A stretch of 25,024 bases of DNA from Calditrichaceae bacterium (GTDB lineage: Bacteria > Calditrichota > Calditrichia > Calditrichales > JBFXGD01), in contig JBFXLE010000039.1 in assembly GCA_050173015.1 (NCBI GenBank), positions 1 through 25,024 on the forward strand. The letters are read 5' to 3'. Below the pieces are notes generated by a model, which saw only the letters and a program-made list of their open reading frames with translations, was not told where the DNA came from and made no database searches. The translations under genes were made by a program, and so were the position numbers. The first letter of the stretch is position 1. Each line of letters opens with the position of its first letter. Positions 1-9,777 of the stretch are shown here, piece after piece.

Positions 1-183
1 TATTATTGCCACTTCCCGCAAACTTTTGGATATCATATATATGACGTTAAAGGAAAAATTAATCTTTGAAGATTTCCCAAATTTTGTAGTGAAATCTTCT
101 TAACACTAAAGATTTTATCATAGGAGTTAATATGCTTCTTCTAAATTAAACGATATTTGCGCTTACCAACAAAGTAAACATTC

Positions 184-987
184 ATGACGCCTGATGAAAT
201 TTTCGAGATATACGTTAGCCATAATTTGCTGAACAAAGCGTTGGCGGAATCGAAAACCTACGCAGCCGTCTCACTGCCCTGGACGATAAACCGCATGCGG
301 TATGTTTCATCCAGGGACGGTTTTGAGAAAAGGCTTCGGAATATTATTCTTGGAAAACTTCCGGAAATTTTTCTGCGCGAAGCATTTCATAAGTTAAATA
401 TATCTGCCGATTTTACCGGGGGCAGCACACCCTATTGGCAAGGTGACCGTTTTGATATGATGATTGAAATAAACGGCGAACCGGAAGAGTGGGATATTAA
501 AAGCCTAAATGTGGACCTGGAGAAAGTAAAGCCCGATGAGATCATGGATTTACCGGTGTTGGTGCCAAATAATTATGAAATGGATCAGTGGTCAAAACGG
601 GAAAAATGTTCAGATCGTATGAGCAGGAGAAAAAGGTTTCTTTTTGCCTATTTAAATTCATTGGGATTGAATGTCCGGCTTTCAGATGAACAATATCTAA
701 ATTTTCAAAAAGTTGTTGAAAACAAAGCGTATTATGAAAATCAAAAAGACTATATTCTGAGAATGGTCAGTCCGATTGAAGTAACGTTGGATAAAAATGA
801 AGCTTTAATAATGATTGCAGGTTGCGCGGGACCTGAAGAATGGCGTTTTTTCAACGATGTTCCCAAAGGTACTAACTTTTTGAACGGATTGTTTACGACG
901 AGGATAAAGAATAAGGGCTGCACAGTCCGGGAATTACAAGCCATAAAAAATCTTGTCCGGATTGATGACCGAAATATTTCTCTATAA
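184..987 (+). CDS. Putative PD-(D/E)xK-fold nuclease / candidate restriction endonuclease
   Basis: 267-aa ORF. The segment GKLPE...DRFD-MMIEINGEPEEW-DIK has the helix-Glu / Asp / (D/E)xK spacing of PD-(D/E)xK nucleases, and the gene converges on a DNA methyltransferase. The function is inferred. Confidence 0.5.
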   Translation: MTPDEIFEIYVSHNLLNKALAESKTYAAVSLPWTINRMRYVSSRDGFEKRLRNIILGKLPEIFLREAFHKLNISADFTGGSTPYWQGDRFDMMIEINGEPEEWDIKSLNVDLEKVKPDEIMDLPVLVPNNYEMDQWSKREKCSDRMSRRKRFLFAYLNSLGLNVRLSDEQYLNFQKVVENKAYYENQKDYILRMVSPIEVTLDKNEALIMIAGCAGPEEWRFFNDVPKGTNFLNGLFTTRIKNKGCTVRELQAIKNLVRIDDRNISL

Positions 988-1056
988 ATACAAAATCACG
1001 TAGATGTTGAGCTTTAAAAGGTAACATTGCAGGATCAAACAGAAAAATTATCAAAG

Positions 1057-2454
1057 TTAGAAGTTCTTCCGGAAAGTCAGACAGTATTGATGGAATGTAT
1101 TGCTGACCCAGGCATTTCCATAGCCGTAAGGAGCAATCCGGATATCATCCTGCAGCCAGAAATTCAGATCGCGCAATTCCATTTCCGGGGCCAGTTTTTC
1201 CACCAGGTCCCAGGCGAAAGTATAAATAGTTCCCTTTTTTTTGATATTTTTAACAATAATAGTCATGTGCCCGCCGGGTTTTAGACGCGAGATAACTTTA
1301 TCATAAATCCGAATTAATTTTGCCAGAAATATATCGTATTCGGCGCAATTCCCAAGATCAGTGTCAAGGTCGGAATAGTTGGTCAGCAGATCCTTGTCGC
1401 GGCGTTTTTGCTGAGTCTCCGCGCCTTTCATATTCAGCATATCCCAGTAGGGGGGAGATGTTATAATATAATCAAACTCTGAAGGGAACCCGGCGGTTCT
1501 GTCAAAAAAGTAAGCATCTCCGTGGGCAATAATAAAAGGATGATTACCATCTGTCCCTGGTATCTTATTATTCGCGGAAAACTGCTTCAGCCTTTCGACC
1601 GCGATCCGGTGAAAATGCTCGGTAATTTCACAACCGTAGGCGAGACGGCCCGTTTCGAGAGCAGCCATCTGTGTACTTCCCGTTCCTGACATGGGATCGA
1701 ATACCGAGTCACCCGGTTTTGTATATTTCTCTATAAACCGGCTGATCAAAACTTCGGGAAATTTAGCGGGATGCAGTTTTACTTTTTCATGACGAGGCGG
1801 TGGTTTTAGAATAAACCATGACGGGAAATCGGGCTTGTTGAAATTGCGGCCGGGGCCATATTTCACATCGGTTGATGCTTGCGGGGCAGTTAGAGTATGT
1901 CTGAAATTTAAGGCATAAAAAATATCAGATCCGGTATGCGGAAAATTTTTATTACCGGTATCAGATCCGTTGACGCATCCCAATTTTTCATCCTTCATCT
2001 CAAAATATTGAGTAACCAATTTGCCCACATGCCAGGCGGACGGATAAAAATTATTACCGGATTCATGATTTCGGACTAAAATTGTGAGGTATCGTTTAGG
2101 TTCTAAATAATTATATATTTGTTTGAGAATCGGGGTCAGCGTGTTTATAAAAAAATTGATCACGCCTTTTTCGGAATCAAGATGTTCATTTTGTAAATTT
2201 ATGACAGCGTAAGAGATCTTTTCAGTCAATAAATCCTGCTCAATATCTATGATTCGTCGTCCGGTCAGGCGCTGAAGGTCAAGAGCTTCATAGTCAATCC
2301 CATACACAGCGACTGCCGAAGGTGTCTCCTCCGGATTGTTCTCTTTTGTAAAAAAACGGATGAAATCCGGCAGGGATGAAACGTCCGCGATATACCACGA
2401 CTTGAGAAATTTCATATATGATTTGGAATCGAGATCGTTCAAACGGTTTTTCAT
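1057..2454 (-). CDS. DNA amino-methyltransferase (N4-C/N6-A; SPPY suggests m4C) with a degenerate duplicated N-terminal MTase domain
   Basis: The C-terminal half has HPAKFP (motif X), VFDPMSGTGST (SAM-binding motif I), YGCEI, HGDA, IITSPPY (catalytic motif IV) and LKPGG. Confidence 0.9.
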   Translation of the reverse strand: MKNRLNDLDSKSYMKFLKSWYIADVSSLPDFIRFFTKENNPEETPSAVAVYGIDYEALDLQRLTGRRIIDIEQDLLTEKISYAVINLQNEHLDSEKGVINFFINTLTPILKQIYNYLEPKRYLTILVRNHESGNNFYPSAWHVGKLVTQYFEMKDEKLGCVNGSDTGNKNFPHTGSDIFYALNFRHTLTAPQASTDVKYGPGRNFNKPDFPSWFILKPPPRHEKVKLHPAKFPEVLISRFIEKYTKPGDSVFDPMSGTGSTQMAALETGRLAYGCEITEHFHRIAVERLKQFSANNKIPGTDGNHPFIIAHGDAYFFDRTAGFPSEFDYIITSPPYWDMLNMKGAETQQKRRDKDLLTNYSDLDTDLGNCAEYDIFLAKLIRIYDKVISRLKPGGHMTIIVKNIKKKGTIYTFAWDLVEKLAPEMELRDLNFWLQDDIRIAPYGYGNAWVSNTFHQYCLTFRKNF

Positions 2455-2523
2455 GCTGAAGTATGATTTCTTTTGCTTTAGATGGAGTAGAATTTAATAT
2501 TCAATTTAGGAATACAGATCAAT

Positions 2524-2832
2524 TTAGTCACCGGTTTCTATATAAATGTAACCATCCTTTTCTTTAACCGGATAGGTTTTCAGCTTTAGCTTATCGTTAT
2601 TGATGAAAGCTCCCGTCTCCAGACTAAAAGACCATCCGTGATGAGGGCAGACGGCATGACCGTCCTTCGCGAAACCATCACTGATCGGTGCGCCCTGATG
2701 AAGGCAAAAATTCCGCAAGGCGTAAACGATTCCCTGATATCGAAACAAGGCGATTTTTCTATTATCAATTACAACCGCTTTGCTGAATCGCTCTTTAACT
2801 TCGTTGCTTTTGGCCGCTTTAACAAATGACAT
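2524..2832 (-). CDS. Small Rieske [2Fe-2S] ferredoxin (NirD/dioxygenase ferredoxin-like)
   Basis: CLHQG and CPHHGWSF Rieske ligand motifs; 102 aa. Its ATG overlaps the upstream stop codon (TAATG). Confidence 0.92.
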   Translation of the reverse strand: MSFVKAAKSNEVKERFSKAVVIDNRKIALFRYQGIVYALRNFCLHQGAPISDGFAKDGHAVCPHHGWSFSLETGAFINNDKLKLKTYPVKEKDGYIYIETGD

Positions 2833-3680
2833 TACAGTGATACTTCTTCTTTTAAGCGATACCCTTTGTCAGTCAGTTCGACCGTTCCCGCGGCGCGGAA
2901 CGGATCATGTTCAAATACAAGGATCCAGTTGCCTTCAACTGCCTTAGGAAGAATGCGTTTCTTCTCGGCCAATGTTGCCAGCGGATTATTGTCATATCCC
3001 ATGATATAAGGAAGCGGGATATGCGAAGCGGTAGGAATCAGATCCGCGCAATAAAGCAGTGTCTGATGACCGTCCGAAATTTTTGGCAGCTGCATACCCT
3101 GTGTATGGCCGAATACGACGAGCAGTTCTATTCCGGGAAATAGTTCCATGGGCCCGGAAAGTTCCTGCAGCTTACCGGCATCCAGGATGGGCTGATAATT
3201 TTCAGGCATATAACTGGCGCGGTCTTTTTCAGAAGGATTATTTGCCCAGTTCCATTGTTCTCCCTGCACGTAAAAAGTCGCGTTAGGAAAAGTCAGTTGA
3301 ACCTTTCCGTCCTGATCAAAATAAGTGGCGCCGCCGATATGATCGAAATGGAGGTGGGTCACAATGACATCGGTTATGTCTTCGGCTGACAATCCCGCTT
3401 TCGCAAGCCCCTTGTGTAGTTCATGTACGGAATGATCTACGCCATAAATTTTGGAGAGCTTTTCATCCATTTTTGTCCCAACCCCGGCATCAACCAAAAT
3501 AGTTCTGCCGTTACCTTTAATCACAAGGGTCCTTAACGCTAAACGGATACGATTGTATTCATCCGCGGGATTGGTTTTATTCCAAAGTGTTTTCGGAATA
3601 ATTCCAAACATCGCGCCGCCATCAAGACTCGCGTATCCTGTTTCTATTGAAAAAATTTCATAGTTGCCGATACGAATCAT
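2832..3680 (-). CDS. Metallo-beta-lactamase-fold hydrolase (YtnP-like)
   Basis: LDGGAMFGIIPK, THLHFDHIGG (HxHxDH), GHTQG, ADL, MGYD and FEHDP; Shine-Dalgarno GAGGA upstream on the minus strand. Confidence 0.92.
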   Translation of the reverse strand: MIRIGNYEIFSIETGYASLDGGAMFGIIPKTLWNKTNPADEYNRIRLALRTLVIKGNGRTILVDAGVGTKMDEKLSKIYGVDHSVHELHKGLAKAGLSAEDITDVIVTHLHFDHIGGATYFDQDGKVQLTFPNATFYVQGEQWNWANNPSEKDRASYMPENYQPILDAGKLQELSGPMELFPGIELLVVFGHTQGMQLPKISDGHQTLLYCADLIPTASHIPLPYIMGYDNNPLATLAEKKRILPKAVEGNWILVFEHDPFRAAGTVELTDKGYRLKEEVSL

Positions 3681-4640: not shown

Positions 4641-5786
4641 CTATAGATATAACTTTACCGCATAATTAACCGCATTCTGAACAATGTGAATATTTCTCGG
4701 ATATTTCAAGGCTCTTGCCATCCTTCTTGCTGAATTTAAAAAGATCAGCCCTGCCGGATCCTGATCTGCTCCCTTTTCACAAACCGAAAGAACCAGTGGC
4801 TTGAATAATTTGTTTTCATTCTCACCGGTTTTGTTCAATCCTGCAAACTGTGCCGTTGCCGATGTTTCATCCTTATCAGAAATTGCTTTTCCGATGCCTT
4901 CAATACTACCGCTAACATTTTCAGTCTTCCGATTATCAGGCGTCGGGAAATCATTAAAAGAACGGGCAATATAAGCGGCCAGGTTTCCCCAGATTATCTG
5001 ATATTTTGCTGATGCGTACCGGTAAGCCTGACGGGCATGGGTCAGGTAAACCGCGTTTTCCCCCTTTTTGCCAGGATTTACCGAAACTCGAAGAAAATAA
5101 TCGGGGTAATTGATTTTATCCGCCTGGACCGGTTCGATCCATTCTCCGGATGTATCATTTCTCAAGTTGACCAGATAGCGGATGACATTAAAGACAAGAT
5201 CTTCGCTGTTATCCCATTCGAGAAATTCCAAACCCTTGCTTGTCGCATTGGCCAATATCAGCGCCTGATGCCCGGCTTCCGAATAATAGCCGGAAGCGAT
5301 CTCAATCAGGTTCTCATTGAAATATTTCTTTGAATCTATCGCGTACAATATATTACGTGAGGTGCGAATGGCATCGTCATAATTTCCTTCATAGATAGCC
5401 AGGGCAAGATCTTTAACAACGACCGCCTGGGGAAATTCACCGTCCCTGAATCGCATTTTGCTAACATCATTTTCCATATAGTCAAAAGAGCTAAAGTATC
5501 GTATGGCTTTTTTTAGCACCGGAGTCGGATTGTCATCCTTAAAAACGGTCTTGACCAGATCGATTAGCGCGTCCGCGTAAATGACGCCCTGAGGAGTGAC
5601 TGACTGATTGTCGATCATCCTCGCGCCTAAGATATAAAATGAAGCCAGGATCCGATTCAGGGATTCGGTATCATCGATGCCGTTTTTGACGATTGAATTC
5701 GCGGATTCAATCTCCTTTTTGATCACGGCTTCGATAAGCTCTTCATTATACTTTTTCGGTATAATCTTGAGATTTAATAAGTCCAT
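4641..5786 (-). CDS. Hypothetical, probably all-helical protein (381 aa)
   Basis: Long ORF within a co-oriented gene run; no catalytic motif recognised. Confidence 0.75.
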   Translation of the reverse strand: MDLLNLKIIPKKYNEELIEAVIKKEIESANSIVKNGIDDTESLNRILASFYILGARMIDNQSVTPQGVIYADALIDLVKTVFKDDNPTPVLKKAIRYFSSFDYMENDVSKMRFRDGEFPQAVVVKDLALAIYEGNYDDAIRTSRNILYAIDSKKYFNENLIEIASGYYSEAGHQALILANATSKGLEFLEWDNSEDLVFNVIRYLVNLRNDTSGEWIEPVQADKINYPDYFLRVSVNPGKKGENAVYLTHARQAYRYASAKYQIIWGNLAAYIARSFNDFPTPDNRKTENVSGSIEGIGKAISDKDETSATAQFAGLNKTGENENKLFKPLVLSVCEKGADQDPAGLIFLNSARRMARALKYPRNIHIVQNAVNYAVKLYL

Positions 5787-7974: not shown

Positions 7975-8044
7975 TTGATCTGGAATTATTAGTAACTATA
8001 TTTCTTATTACTAATGTGTTAGTAACTCAATTTAGTGTTACTAC
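7975..8044 (+). promoter_or_regulatory. Candidate sigma70-type promoter overlapped by an array of TTAGTAAC / (G/A)TTACTA half-sites (putative operator)
   Basis: TTGATC (7975)-16 bp-TATATT (7997). Half-sites lie at 7989, 8007, 8019 and 8037, with a perfect inverted repeat TTACTAA-tgtg-TTAGTAA at 8008-8025. Confidence 0.55.
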
Positions 8045-8247
8045 CAAATGACAAGGAATACCGATCTTCCGGAGATTGTGATTCTGACAAACAAAAAAAG
8101 CGTGTTTTGTTTCTCCCGGCGGCGGGAAATCGTTGATCCTTGTCTCTAATATTTTGTAATGCTGATTTTTCGACGCGTTTTTAAATGAAAATTATTGAAA
8201 TTGTGCAAAATTTCCCGTAAAGTAAAATTCAAGGCGTGGTTTATTGA

Positions 8248-9777
8248 ATGAAATTGTTACTGATACGTCGAATAAGATTCCTGTTCATCCTCTTCTATTT
8301 AATTATTACGATGACTGTCGCGGGTTGCAGTTCAGCAAAAAACAATGATAATATTGCGCAGATCAATGATTTTGGGATTACTATCGCCGAGTTTCAGGAT
8401 CGGTTAAACTACAATCCCTATTTACGGGCCATCGAAGACGTTAATGTAGTAAAAAAAATAGTCCTGTCATCGCTGATTGCTGAAAAAATTCTCAGCCTGG
8501 AAAATGAAGAAACATCCGGCGTGAGTGAAAATGTCAATCTGTTGATTCGCCAACATTTAAGAGAAGCAATGATCGAACAATTCAGACGTGACTCGGTTGA
8601 AAGCGCGATTAAGATTTCGGATGCTGAGCTTCAGCATGAATATCAAAAAGCAATTCGGGAAATAGATATTCATTATATCGCTTTTGATTCGCTGAATGAC
8701 GCGTTGAAAGTCAAGTCCAAAATCGACTCGGGCCGCACATATGAATCTGTTGTAAAAGCCTATATGAAGAATAGGGGATGGGGTGATGAACCTATTCCTT
8801 ATAAAAAAATTCGATGGGCAAATGAAGATTATGACCTTGAAGAAAAGATATATCAACTTAAACCTAATGAAATCAGCAATATTATCAAAGCTCATGGTGA
8901 ATACTACCTTATAAAGATTGATAATATAAAAATAATCGAAAAACTATCTTCCAAAGATTATAAAAATAGACTTCCCGCCCTAGAAGACCGCATTCTTCGA
9001 AATAAAATTAAAAAACAGTACAGAGTAGTATATCATCGCACTATCCAAAAAGAAGCGGGTGAAGTCGAGTGGGATAAGCTGAAAGAAGCCGCCAAATTAG
9101 TCTCTGATGAAATAGAATTCAGTCAAAATGATCCCGCGCAAACGGGTCCGGTGGCGTATAAGCCTTTACCTGAAAATATTTATTTGAACCGGCAGGCCAT
9201 TTTAAATGATCTGAAAAATAATACCGCGGTTAATTTTCCTGATGGATCAACCTGGACTTTTCAGGAATTAATGGTTCAGCTAAAGTATGGACCATACGCA
9301 TTTGATTTCAGCAACAGCGGATCATTTATACATTCTTTTATTCAGAATGTCAGGTTGTTAATGGAGCACGAAGCTATCTATAAGCTGGCCCAAAAGAAAG
9401 GATATGAACATAATAAGCTGGTGCAGGATGAATATAAAATGTGGAAGTCTTATTATCAGGCCAACTCATTCCGGCACAATCTGCTGAGTGAATTAGATGC
9501 AAAATTAGCTGAAAAAAATATGCATGGTAAAGATCAATCCATTGAGGAACAACGGCTGGAATATTTTGATGCCAGATTGACGGCTTATGCGGAGAATTAT
9601 AAAATAGTAATATATAAAGCGGTTTATGACACGGTTTCATTAAATAAATTGGATATGGTTGTAAGAAAATCACATTTTGCCAATCGGTTGGTTTCACCCC
9701 GCCTGGAACCACTGATAGGATTACCATTCTGGCAGAAAAAGATAGATTCTTTGTTCAGGCGGTATGAGATTAACTGA
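8248..9777 (+). CDS. PrsA/SurA-like (PpiC parvulin-domain) lipoprotein chaperone
   Basis: Lipobox TVAG-C; IAQINDFGITIAEF N-domain; ISDAELQHEY; parvulin-like IHYIAFDSLNDA...IDSGRTYE and LKPNEISNIIKAHGEYYLIKI. Confidence 0.78.
   Translation: MKLLLIRRIRFLFILFYLIITMTVAGCSSAKNNDNIAQINDFGITIAEFQDRLNYNPYLRAIEDVNVVKKIVLSSLIAEKILSLENEETSGVSENVNLLIRQHLREAMIEQFRRDSVESAIKISDAELQHEYQKAIREIDIHYIAFDSLNDALKVKSKIDSGRTYESVVKAYMKNRGWGDEPIPYKKIRWANEDYDLEEKIYQLKPNEISNIIKAHGEYYLIKIDNIKIIEKLSSKDYKNRLPALEDRILRNKIKKQYRVVYHRTIQKEAGEVEWDKLKEAAKLVSDEIEFSQNDPAQTGPVAYKPLPENIYLNRQAILNDLKNNTAVNFPDGSTWTFQELMVQLKYGPYAFDFSNSGSFIHSFIQNVRLLMEHEAIYKLAQKKGYEHNKLVQDEYKMWKSYYQANSFRHNLLSELDAKLAEKNMHGKDQSIEEQRLEYFDARLTAYAENYKIVIYKAVYDTVSLNKLDMVVRKSHFANRLVSPRLEPLIGLPFWQKKIDSLFRRYEIN

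Follow-up and report, generated by a model that had tools for sequence, protein, structure and literature searches.

A bacterial amino-methyltransferase chain that joins a decayed N-terminal copy to an intact, circularly permuted C-terminal copy

Amino-methyltransferases (MTases) of the beta class are active only as dimers in which one subunit catalyzes and the other assists, according to the parts of two reviews that treat them (PMC7544214, PMC10406627). In METTL3–METTL14 and the ciliate MTA1–MTA9, an active and an inactive beta-type amino-MTase paralogue form a fixed pair, as described in a section of the first of these (PMC7544214). A single-chain arrangement is exemplified by RsmC, whose tandem MTase domains are termed “pseudodimeric” in a portion of PMC1934991; there, the N-terminal domain lacks S-adenosylmethionine (SAM) binding, motif loss is complementary between the domains, and each domain depends on the other. 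The window considered here, the entire 25-kb contig JBFXLE010000039.1 (25,024 nucleotides) from the 4.3-Mb genome of a Calditrichaceae bacterium, encodes P0001, a 465-amino acid (aa) protein with an intact reading frame. P0001 is the product of an intragenic duplication, and consists of a dead N-terminal MTase copy (aa 1–185) and an intact, permuted C-terminal copy (aa 186–465), hereafter the N and C copies. PF01555 (N6_N4_Mtase) is the sole Pfam family detected in the protein; it scores 88.3 bits, well above its gathering cut-off of 26.7 (E 9.5e-25), and matches in two stretches that both lie inside aa 210–465. The PADLOC models matching P0001 are those of Type II methyltransferases (MTase_II), and its nearest named relative is an 83%-identical protein from a Calditrichaceae metagenome-assembled genome (MAG). 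P0001 can be regarded as an amino-MTase of the PF01555 sequence family, presumably with DNA as its target. A literature search, which had REBASE outside its scope so that prior notice there is possible, did not turn up any DNA amino-MTase described as carrying a dead duplicated domain in the same chain.

The beta-class homodimers compared here (M.PvuII, M.RsrI, M1.MboII, TTHA0409, CcrM, M.EcoP15I Mod2, and rotifer N4CMT) share PF01555 with P0001, and the closest solved relatives of the latter are TTHA0409 (2zie, E 2.1e-16), N4CMT, CcrM, DpnA, and M.PvuII. Whereas these homodimers are built from two identical chains, each with an active site and with motif IV followed by motif I, P0001 is one chain with one dead copy, in which motif I is followed by motif IV. 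METTL3–METTL14 and MTA1–MTA9 differ from P0001 in being separate polypeptides of eukaryotic origin that act on RNA or nucleosomal DNA and result from independent duplications. When the full structural model of P0001 was searched with Foldseek, the best matches were chains with two MTase domains (PMT2 at E 3e-11, RsmC, RlmG, RlmKL), aligned over 450–530 columns but with template-modeling (TM) scores of only 0.24–0.30 and root-mean-square deviations (rmsd) above 20 Å, such that the domain types agree while their mutual arrangement does not. RsmC and RlmG, whose structures 3dmf, 2pjd, and 4dcm are among the top matches, resemble P0001 in having two homologous MTase-fold domains, a dead N-terminal one, and complementary motif loss. 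Unlike P0001, they are rRNA m2G enzymes of another MTase subfamily, have neither a restriction partner nor a circular permutation, and arrange their domains differently (TM 0.24–0.35, rmsd >20 Å, 450–510 columns). The nematode and plant phosphoethanolamine N-methyltransferases (4krh, 4kri, 5wp5), which rank as the best Foldseek matches, also hold two MTase folds per chain; they differ in being small-molecule enzymes with no detectable sequence relation and another domain packing (TM 0.26–0.29). In nematode PMT2, one of the two MTase domains is vestigial. Fused double MTases of type IIS systems, such as M.FokI, possess two active domains, each methylating one strand of an asymmetric site; like them, P0001 carries two MTase domains in one chain, in its case of a probable restriction-modification system, but its N copy lacks the catalytic motifs.

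The relationship between the two copies is directly detectable and lies far beyond chance. A BLASTP comparison of aa 1–205 with aa 206–465 returned one 56-aa alignment (N 100–155 with C 374–429, 25% identity) at E 1e-5, a value that applies to a single pairwise comparison. Profiles made from a 118-member family alignment cut at residue 200/201 and compared with hhalign gave a far stronger match between N 86–186 and C 362–463 (probability 98.8%, E 7.9e-17). A second, colinear match is weak (N 17–40 with C 210–249, E 0.0023, probability 12.5%), and bridges a 16-residue gap at which the C half has KPPPR...HPAKFPE. As a control, the N-half profile was compared with that of an unrelated family, the one of the neighboring gene, and gave a probability of 0.17% and E 0.34. 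The initial annotation had proposed, from an alignment by eye, that a degenerate N-terminal copy is fused to an intact C-terminal one, and had named self-alignment as a check. Both the half-against-half profile match and the single-domain relatives discussed below bear the proposal out, and seven of its eight eye-aligned segment pairs were reproduced. For the eighth, LTGRRIIDIE/ETGRLAYGCE, MAFFT and hhalign disagree on the placement; the pair does fit the modeled secondary structure, in which helix 57–64 and strand 67–70 correspond to helix 260–267 and strand 271–276. By profiles and by folds, P0001 therefore holds two mutually homologous MTase-fold domains in a single chain, as a pseudodimeric MTase does.

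The C copy is of full size (280 residues) and retains the HPAKFPE segment, the SAM-binding loop DPMSGTGS, and the catalytic SPPY. The pairing of (S/D/N)PP(Y/F) with a glycine-rich SAM loop that characterizes amino-MTases occurs in this copy only. Between m4C and m6A as the methylated base, SPPY hints at m4C, a rule for which the comparison with N4CMT in PMC10406627 speaks. Alignment to the beta-class structure 2zie (TTHA0409) matches query 222–291 to chain residues 210–279, and query 357–405 to chain residues 53–101; since the blocks are swapped relative to TTHA0409, the C copy is circularly permuted, with motif I ahead of motif IV. The PF01555 alignment places query 210–287 on profile positions 141–221 of 221, and together with the 2zie alignment it upholds the permuted order already noticed by eye. 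With aa 253–260 preceding aa 333–336, the enzyme departs from the strict definition of class beta, in which motif IV lies N-terminal to motif I. Judged by its sequence, P0001 is beta-like in its motifs and permuted in their order, and does not count as class beta in the strict, order-based sense. Toward its C terminus lies a conserved loop and last strand, APYGYGNAWVSNTFHQYCLTFRK, that persists in the C copy but has decayed or been deleted in the N copy; its residues 444–451 are modeled at a predicted local distance difference test (pLDDT) value below 50, and the leader of the partner is predicted to make contact there. The leader of the C copy, which has decayed and today serves as an inter-domain linker, falls in a segment (aa 181–210) whose successive blocks have pLDDT values of 83, 78, and 89.

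Single-domain enzymes connect the two copies to a common source. Used alone as a query, the C half gave 2805 proteins of 143–455 aa. Many are 250–281 aa long and 49–54% identical over 95–99% of the C half (65% for P0033), and relatives of ~270 aa, 50–54% identical to the C half, share the order from motif I to motif IV. Half-specific hidden Markov models (HMMs) sorted 233 family proteins into 158 two-domain and 36 complete single-domain forms, with 39 truncated or ambiguous ones excluded. The N-half HMM gives two colinear matches to the single-domain proteins: HMM positions 2–42 pair with the initial ~60 residues (E 1e-9 to 1e-13), and positions 75–189 with the final ~100 residues (E 1e-17 to 1e-24). 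A profile comparison of 57 N halves with the 36 single-domain proteins reached 99.96% probability and E 5.3e-39 over 194 columns (N 2–196 with 8–278), so that the comparison with single-domain homologues, another check suggested at the outset, speaks clearly for the duplication. By these alignments, the N copy descends from a complete single-domain enzyme that was already permuted. The single-domain permuted relatives, such as P0193, combine the motif order of the C copy with the leader and KDEK of the N copy, and differ from P0001 in being one-domain proteins and predicted symmetric homodimers; theirs is probably the ancestral state.

The two-domain form appears to have a single origin. In a FastTree phylogeny of 156 rows and 266 columns (36 single-domain proteins, 60 N halves, 60 C halves), all N halves form one group (support 100) and all C halves another (support 99), with the single-domain rows in between. 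The nearest tree neighbors of the N and C halves of P0001 are largely the same proteins (four of the five listed), and N paths are about twice as long as C paths. This topology fits a single fusion event; because the method is a fast one and the N rows are long and gappy, it serves as a consistency check rather than as proof. This catalytic domain also occurs in combination with various partners: among P0264 and P0283 (~600–626 aa) and P0349, P0327, and P0308 (446–669 aa), all related to the single-domain permuted MTase, there are proteins with an intein (LAGLIDADG_3, Intein_splicing) or with an N-terminal ParB_N domain, and P0327 also has HTH_ParB.

The initial annotation had also raised the idea that the two-copy protein is an intermediate of circular permutation; trimming of both ends would, on such a model, yield a new motif order. 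Duplication followed by truncation from both directions is indeed a proposed route to permuted MTases, as mentioned in a portion of PMC5944983 that cites Jeltsch 1999, and the region that spans the latter part of the N copy and the early part of the C copy does read in beta-class order. Yet permutation came first: the duplication must postdate it, because motif I already precedes motif IV in the single-domain relatives, with which the N half aligns colinearly over its whole length. Moreover, two-domain proteins (158 classified, 71 loci) make up a conserved lineage found across many phyla, the N copy has deleted the very motifs that a re-permuted product would need, and the order IV–VIII followed by X–I–III was seen in none of the 233 classified proteins. 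The idea was therefore rejected, and its residual probability is minute.

The N copy is a decayed MTase domain, ~85 residues shorter than a single-domain relative. It has lost HPAKFPE, the DPMSGTGS loop, and SPPY, as had been read from the sequence and as the alignments uphold: the columns of the glycine loop, of (S/D/N)PP(Y/F), and of HPAKFPE are gaps or unconserved in 60 N halves. Neither Pfam nor NCBIfam has any match to aa 1–200 even at E<=10. The AlphaFold2 model of full-length P0001 has a mean pLDDT of 88.2 and a predicted TM score (pTM) of 0.89, and in it the secondary structure of aa 20–185 repeats the order of aa 213–463 minus one strand and its flanking helices. Modeled by itself from 57 N halves, the N half reaches pLDDT 88.8 and pTM 0.86. 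A Foldseek search with this half gave 102 matches at E<=1e-3, of which the best 50 are all class-I SAM MTases; CamA, N4CMT, and TTHA0409 are among the matches listed. The TM scores of the N half to MTases are only 0.33–0.49. VIA-align returned a best Z of 10.2 (TrmN, 131 residues, 2.8 Å) and Z>=8 for 262 of 1000 chains. The N half thus has a methyltransferase-type (class-I) fold, and is a whole, decayed METHYLTRANSFERASE domain; both halves are modeled as MTase-type folds, and the outcome that had been named as fatal to the duplication, an N-terminal half of unrelated fold, did not materialize. Conceivably, this fold in both halves could reflect two active MTases, in the manner of the fused type IIS enzymes, or an N copy that still binds SAM as a regulator. 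Against that, all three motif segments are gapped or unconserved across the 60 N halves and the family databases are blank over aa 1–200, so that such a reading is barely credible.

Two elements of the N copy have a different history. Its leader, NRLNDLDSKSYMKFLKSWY, is common to the single-domain relatives and gone from the C copy, and the predicted interface residues in it survive only in the N copy. Likewise, KDEK is conserved in the single-domain relatives (as LKDEKIWCQDD) and in the N halves, and lost from the C halves. The conserved D-L-R of the N copy (N86-L-Q in P0001) had been a candidate for a decayed motif IV; it was dropped because MAFFT and hhalign position it differently. A profile search with the N half against 1.84 billion representatives yielded 293 proteins at E<=0.001. 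The interpretable rows among those listed are two-domain, single-domain, or fragment members of this same MTase family (Pfam was checked for 8 of the 150 listed proteins), with no sign of canonical beta-class MTases among them. The ~185 residues that go unrecognized by Pfam and NCBIfam in this widespread family are a decayed MTase domain, and annotation pipelines at present label only the C half of the two-domain enzyme. Some open reading frames (ORFs) contain an N copy only, namely P0246 (210 aa), P0249 (252 aa), P0252 (204 aa), and P0257 (185 aa); P0246 and P0249, the two that were scanned, have no Pfam match. They may be fragments at contig ends, or the dead copy may be encoded there by a split gene, as a subunit of its own.

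Table 1. Coordinates, in the window, of the two-domain methyltransferase gene, its parts, and its convergent neighbor. Invariance of motif residues in the C copy was scored over 117 sequences.
Feature	Position	Strand	Basis
Two-domain amino-methyltransferase gene (P0001), 465 aa, stop codon included	1057..2454	(-)	ORF list and translation; PF01555; PADLOC Type II MTase models
N copy, degenerate MTase domain without motifs X/I/III/IV, aa 1–185	1900..2454	(-)	hhalign, AlphaFold2, Foldseek, VIA
N-terminal leader NRLNDLDSKSYMKFLKSWY, aa 3–21	2392..2448	(-)	N-half HMM; predicted interface residues 3–7, 11, 14–16, 18–21
KDEK of the N copy, aa 154–157	1984..1995	(-)	Group consensus; predicted interface residues 231–237 of the single-domain protein
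Decayed C-copy leader, present inter-domain linker, aa 186–210	1825..1899	(-)	Alignment of N, C, and single-domain rows
C-copy core, intact catalytic domain, order X-I-II-III-IV-...-VIII, aa 211–465	1060..1824	(-)	Pfam, 2zie alignment, PADLOC
HPAKFPE, ahead of motif I, aa 228–234	1753..1773	(-)	H228, P229, K231, P233, E234 invariant
DPMSGTGS, SAM-binding loop, motif I, aa 253–260	1675..1698	(-)	D253, P254, M255, G257, G259, S260 invariant
SPPY, catalytic motif IV, aa 333–336	1447..1458	(-)	S333, P334, P335, Y336 invariant
APYGYGNAWVSNTFHQYCLTFRK, conserved loop and last strand, aa 441–463	1066..1134	(-)	Conservation, predicted interface
Convergent neighbor P0002, candidate restriction endonuclease, 267 aa	184..987	(+)	Recurrence beside the MTase; invariant acidic/K residues

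What has been kept in each copy is as telling as what has been lost. Columns conserved at >=80% in the 36 single-domain proteins, 134 in number, were followed into a random sample of 60 of the 158 two-domain proteins, P0001 included. Both halves retain 20 of these columns; a further 16 survive solely in the N half and 82 solely in the C half, and the remaining 16 are retained by neither half. Motif loss in one domain is thus accompanied by complementary retention, the second hallmark of a pseudodimeric MTase. The N-only columns comprise the leader (NRxNxLxSKEWLxFQKS), the first F of FFTK, and KDEK, whereas the C-only columns include every catalytic and SAM motif and the APYG...WVSNTFH loop. 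Mean identity is 27% between N halves and single-domain proteins and 49% between C halves and single-domain proteins, 18% between N and C halves, 33% among N halves, and 55% among C halves. Across 80 loci, drawn from the best 80 of 570 relatives confirmed in species-representative genomes (71 two-domain, 9 single-domain), identity to the protein of the window ranges from 47% to 89% in the C half and from 22% to 76% in the N half; these values and the mean identities show that the N copy evolves faster, yet is still under selection.

The retention pattern was related to a predicted dimer. Two copies of the single-domain P0193 (270 aa, 36-row alignment) gave an interaction prediction score from aligned errors (ipSAE) of 0.76, with 0.00 for the best control. 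The score is the median of three runs that share >=94% of their contacts, with partner pLDDT >=77, and its pass mark was reached by 20 of 30 solved one-chain pairs and by 1 of 23 solved single chains. The predicted symmetric interface comprises the leader (3–7, 11, 14–16, 18–21), the FF pair (51–52), the PLAW region (214–224), LKDEKI (231–237), and the 245–260 loop. On this interface, the N half retains 20 of 36 conserved columns, compared with 16 of 98 others (Fisher odds ratio 6.4, p 1.6e-5), while the C half shows the opposite bias, with 20 of 36 interface columns and 82 of 98 others. The interface residues kept in the N half are N4, N7, W14, Q18, K19, S20, F51, K233, D234, K236, I237, and R267; those kept in the C half are K210, A246, P247, Y248, W254, V255, S256, N257, T258, and H260. 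The predicted contacts of lowest error link the two sets: residue 20 with 256–260, 21 with 237/239/260, 234 with 255/256, and 51 with 254. According to the model, the two halves keep opposite faces of the predicted interface. One of two ancestral contact patches, the N leader and KDEK against the C loop, would have survived while the reciprocal one decayed, and the N and C copies may pack like the ancestral dimer. The scaffold or partner role that had been suggested for the dead half sits well with this preferential retention of homodimer-interface columns.

Retention of the N copy could also have another driver. The dead copy might have been re-used mainly as a module for DNA target recognition or clamping, a substitute for a target-recognition domain, whose conserved residues contact DNA much as the dead N domain of RsmC binds substrate. 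The permuted C copy has no separate target-recognition domain, and the chain stops right after the last strand. Furthermore, the second subunit binds DNA in beta-class dimers covered in parts of PMC7544214 and PMC10406627, the N domain of RsmC is proposed as a substrate-binding module in a portion of PMC1934991, and 16 of the 36 single-domain-conserved columns retained in the N half fall outside the predicted interface. Set against these points, the residues most strictly kept in the N half, those of the leader and KDEK, sit in the predicted subunit interface. As the sole or main role of the N copy, DNA binding is possible but on the doubtful side; it is compatible with a role as structural partner, since the N copy could do both jobs.

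Together, these observations can be assembled into a scenario, which we consider probable as a whole: a permuted homodimeric ancestor, a tandem fusion, and a dead N copy retained as structural partner. The ancestor would have been a single-domain enzyme of ~270 aa, already permuted with motif I before motif IV, and homodimeric. Its head-to-tail duplication and fusion would have given an upstream and a downstream copy. The downstream copy (aa 186–465) would have retained all SAM-binding and catalytic motifs, and lost its N-terminal leader, which turned into a linker. The upstream copy (aa 1–185) would have lost ~85 residues by deletion, and with them HPAKFPE, the SAM loop, the beta3 unit, and SPPY together with its following loop, but kept its Rossmann-like fold, leader, FFTK, PxAW, KDEK, and last strand. 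In the homodimer predicted for single-domain relatives, it is these retained elements that build the subunit interface; P0001 would accordingly amount to a 1:1 “heterodimer” hard-wired into one polypeptide, with a single active site. The catalytic copy would then have the dead one as its structural partner, with the leader and KDEK face of the latter packed against the APYG...WVSNTFH loop of the former, and activity would presumably need the N copy. A more specific version, for which the case is evenly balanced, sees in P0001 a natural single-chain form of an obligate beta-type dimer, in which one active site and one half of the symmetric interface were discarded after one fusion, and the N leader and KDEK hold the live active-site loop.

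Several considerations weigh against this scenario. The TM scores of the N half are low and its Z of ~10 is not far above the background of 7–8 quoted for the tool, for which reason the claim on its fold leans on the profile comparison. Compared with sequences of the Protein Data Bank (PDB), the N-half profile finds no methyltransferase, its top match, at 0.16, being a histidine kinase; the N copy is too diverged for this kind of sequence-to-structure matching. The P0193 homodimer is a prediction, and its passing score may reflect memory of solved beta-class dimers. Interface and retention are linked through that same prediction, from which the interface was taken, and the columns counted are not independent of one another. 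The pTM of the full model is the only sign, and an indirect one, of a fixed arrangement between the N and C copies. Finally, the conserved residues of the N half could serve DNA binding instead of, or besides, subunit contact.

If the scenario is true, one catalytic subunit per dimer suffices and the second subunit is a structural activator. This would be the logic of METTL3/METTL14, reached independently in bacteria and then spread over at least five named phyla. In homodimers, the contribution of the second subunit is hard to show, as both subunits are identical. With a fixed asymmetric single chain and single-domain relatives of ~50% identity at hand, the question becomes directly testable. 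A monomeric, concentration-independent MTase may also be of practical use.

The gene's immediate surroundings suggest its biological role. P0001 most likely provides the modification activity of a type II restriction-modification pair, in which the restriction partner is probably P0002, encoded convergently with a 69-bp gap to the MTase stop codon. Homologues of P0002 adjoin the MTase in 36 of the 71 two-domain loci and in one of the nine single-domain loci; the 36 come from several phyla, with 26 convergent downstream, nine divergent upstream, and one in another arrangement. Within the phylum of the window, 8 of 12 loci, the window included, have a homologue, this set partly overlapping the 71 loci. 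Alignment of 38 family members revealed invariant E61, D88, D91, D104, and K106, the last two within EWDIK. An E...D..D...DxK-type pattern of this kind is typical of PD-(D/E)XK nucleases. P0002 could thus be the cognate nuclease of P0001, and is treated here as a candidate. It has no match in Pfam, NCBIfam, or PADLOC; its family has no match to PDB sequences at E<=10, and no Pfam family was matched by more than one of the 38 members. In the protein Atlas it falls into “hypothetical protein” clusters only, and a word-based homologue search gave five proteins, named “hypothetical”.

The alternative is that P0001 is a solitary (orphan) MTase here and P0002 is not its restriction partner. No P0002 homologue lies beside the MTase in 35 of the 71 two-domain loci, some of which have short flanks, and in some of which the gene has housekeeping neighbors (phosphoglycerate mutase, DUF983). 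P0002 also matches no nuclease family in the databases searched, and its nuclease role is drawn from synteny and a short motif only; both this and the loci without a neighbor tell against a restriction pair. They are countered by the direct adjacency in 36 loci of several phyla in two arrangements, by the invariant pattern, and by the intact 267-aa frame of the window copy, which together make an orphan unlikely, and a restriction partner in P0002 remains the favored reading. Recurrent MTase neighbors (DUF983, phosphoglycerate mutase, NYN, AAA_15) showed no relation to the P0002 family or to the MTase.

On its upstream side, the MTase gene of the window is bordered by genes of a housekeeping nature: a Rieske protein, a metallo-beta-lactamase (MBL)-fold hydrolase, an alpha/beta hydrolase, a peroxiredoxin, and a TonB-dependent receptor. 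Between the alpha/beta hydrolase and DUF309 genes lies a 381-aa ORF without a Pfam family (4641..5786, minus strand). In two other Calditrichaceae/Calditrichaeota MAGs (loci L017 and L018), the two-domain MTase adjoins an upstream gene of the family that is also next to it in L016, the locus most closely related to the window; in the window itself, the corresponding upstream position (within 1..3680) is taken by the MBL-fold hydrolase gene. No P0002 homologue was found at L017 or L018, and gain or loss of the putative nuclease gene apparently left the methylase in place. Four single-domain loci (L087, L088, L091, L095) have a recurrent same-strand upstream ORF of 258–286 aa with no detectable relation to the P0002 family or to the MTase, and the L087 member has no Pfam family; this gene may be a different restriction partner of the single-domain enzymes.

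The family is patchy yet widespread. Matches were found in 14 of 61 sampled genomes of the window's phylum, 12 of them full length (including the genome of the window) and two single-domain. The best 80 of the 570 relatives come from Calditrichota, KSB1, Bacteroidota, Chloroflexota, Marinimicrobia, Deferribacteres, and others, and the single-domain forms among them are partly archaeal. Together with the recurrent neighbor, this distribution is in keeping with a mobile type II restriction-modification module whose methylase is often left on its own. Several palindromes are strongly under-represented in the genome (observed/expected: GTATAC 0.38, GTCGAC 0.44, ACGT 0.70, GGCC 0.76, CTAG 0.30) and are possible restriction targets; they cannot be assigned to the P0001/P0002 system, since at least three further genes resembling PF01555 (C11, C20, C21) are present in the genome. 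The first kilobase of the window (1..1000), which holds the putative nuclease gene, has a G+C content of 37.6%. Only 8001–9000 is lower (36.1%), the other 1-kb bins lying at 37.9–47.2% and the five that follow the first at 40.7–44.9%. This low value may point to a foreign origin of the segment.

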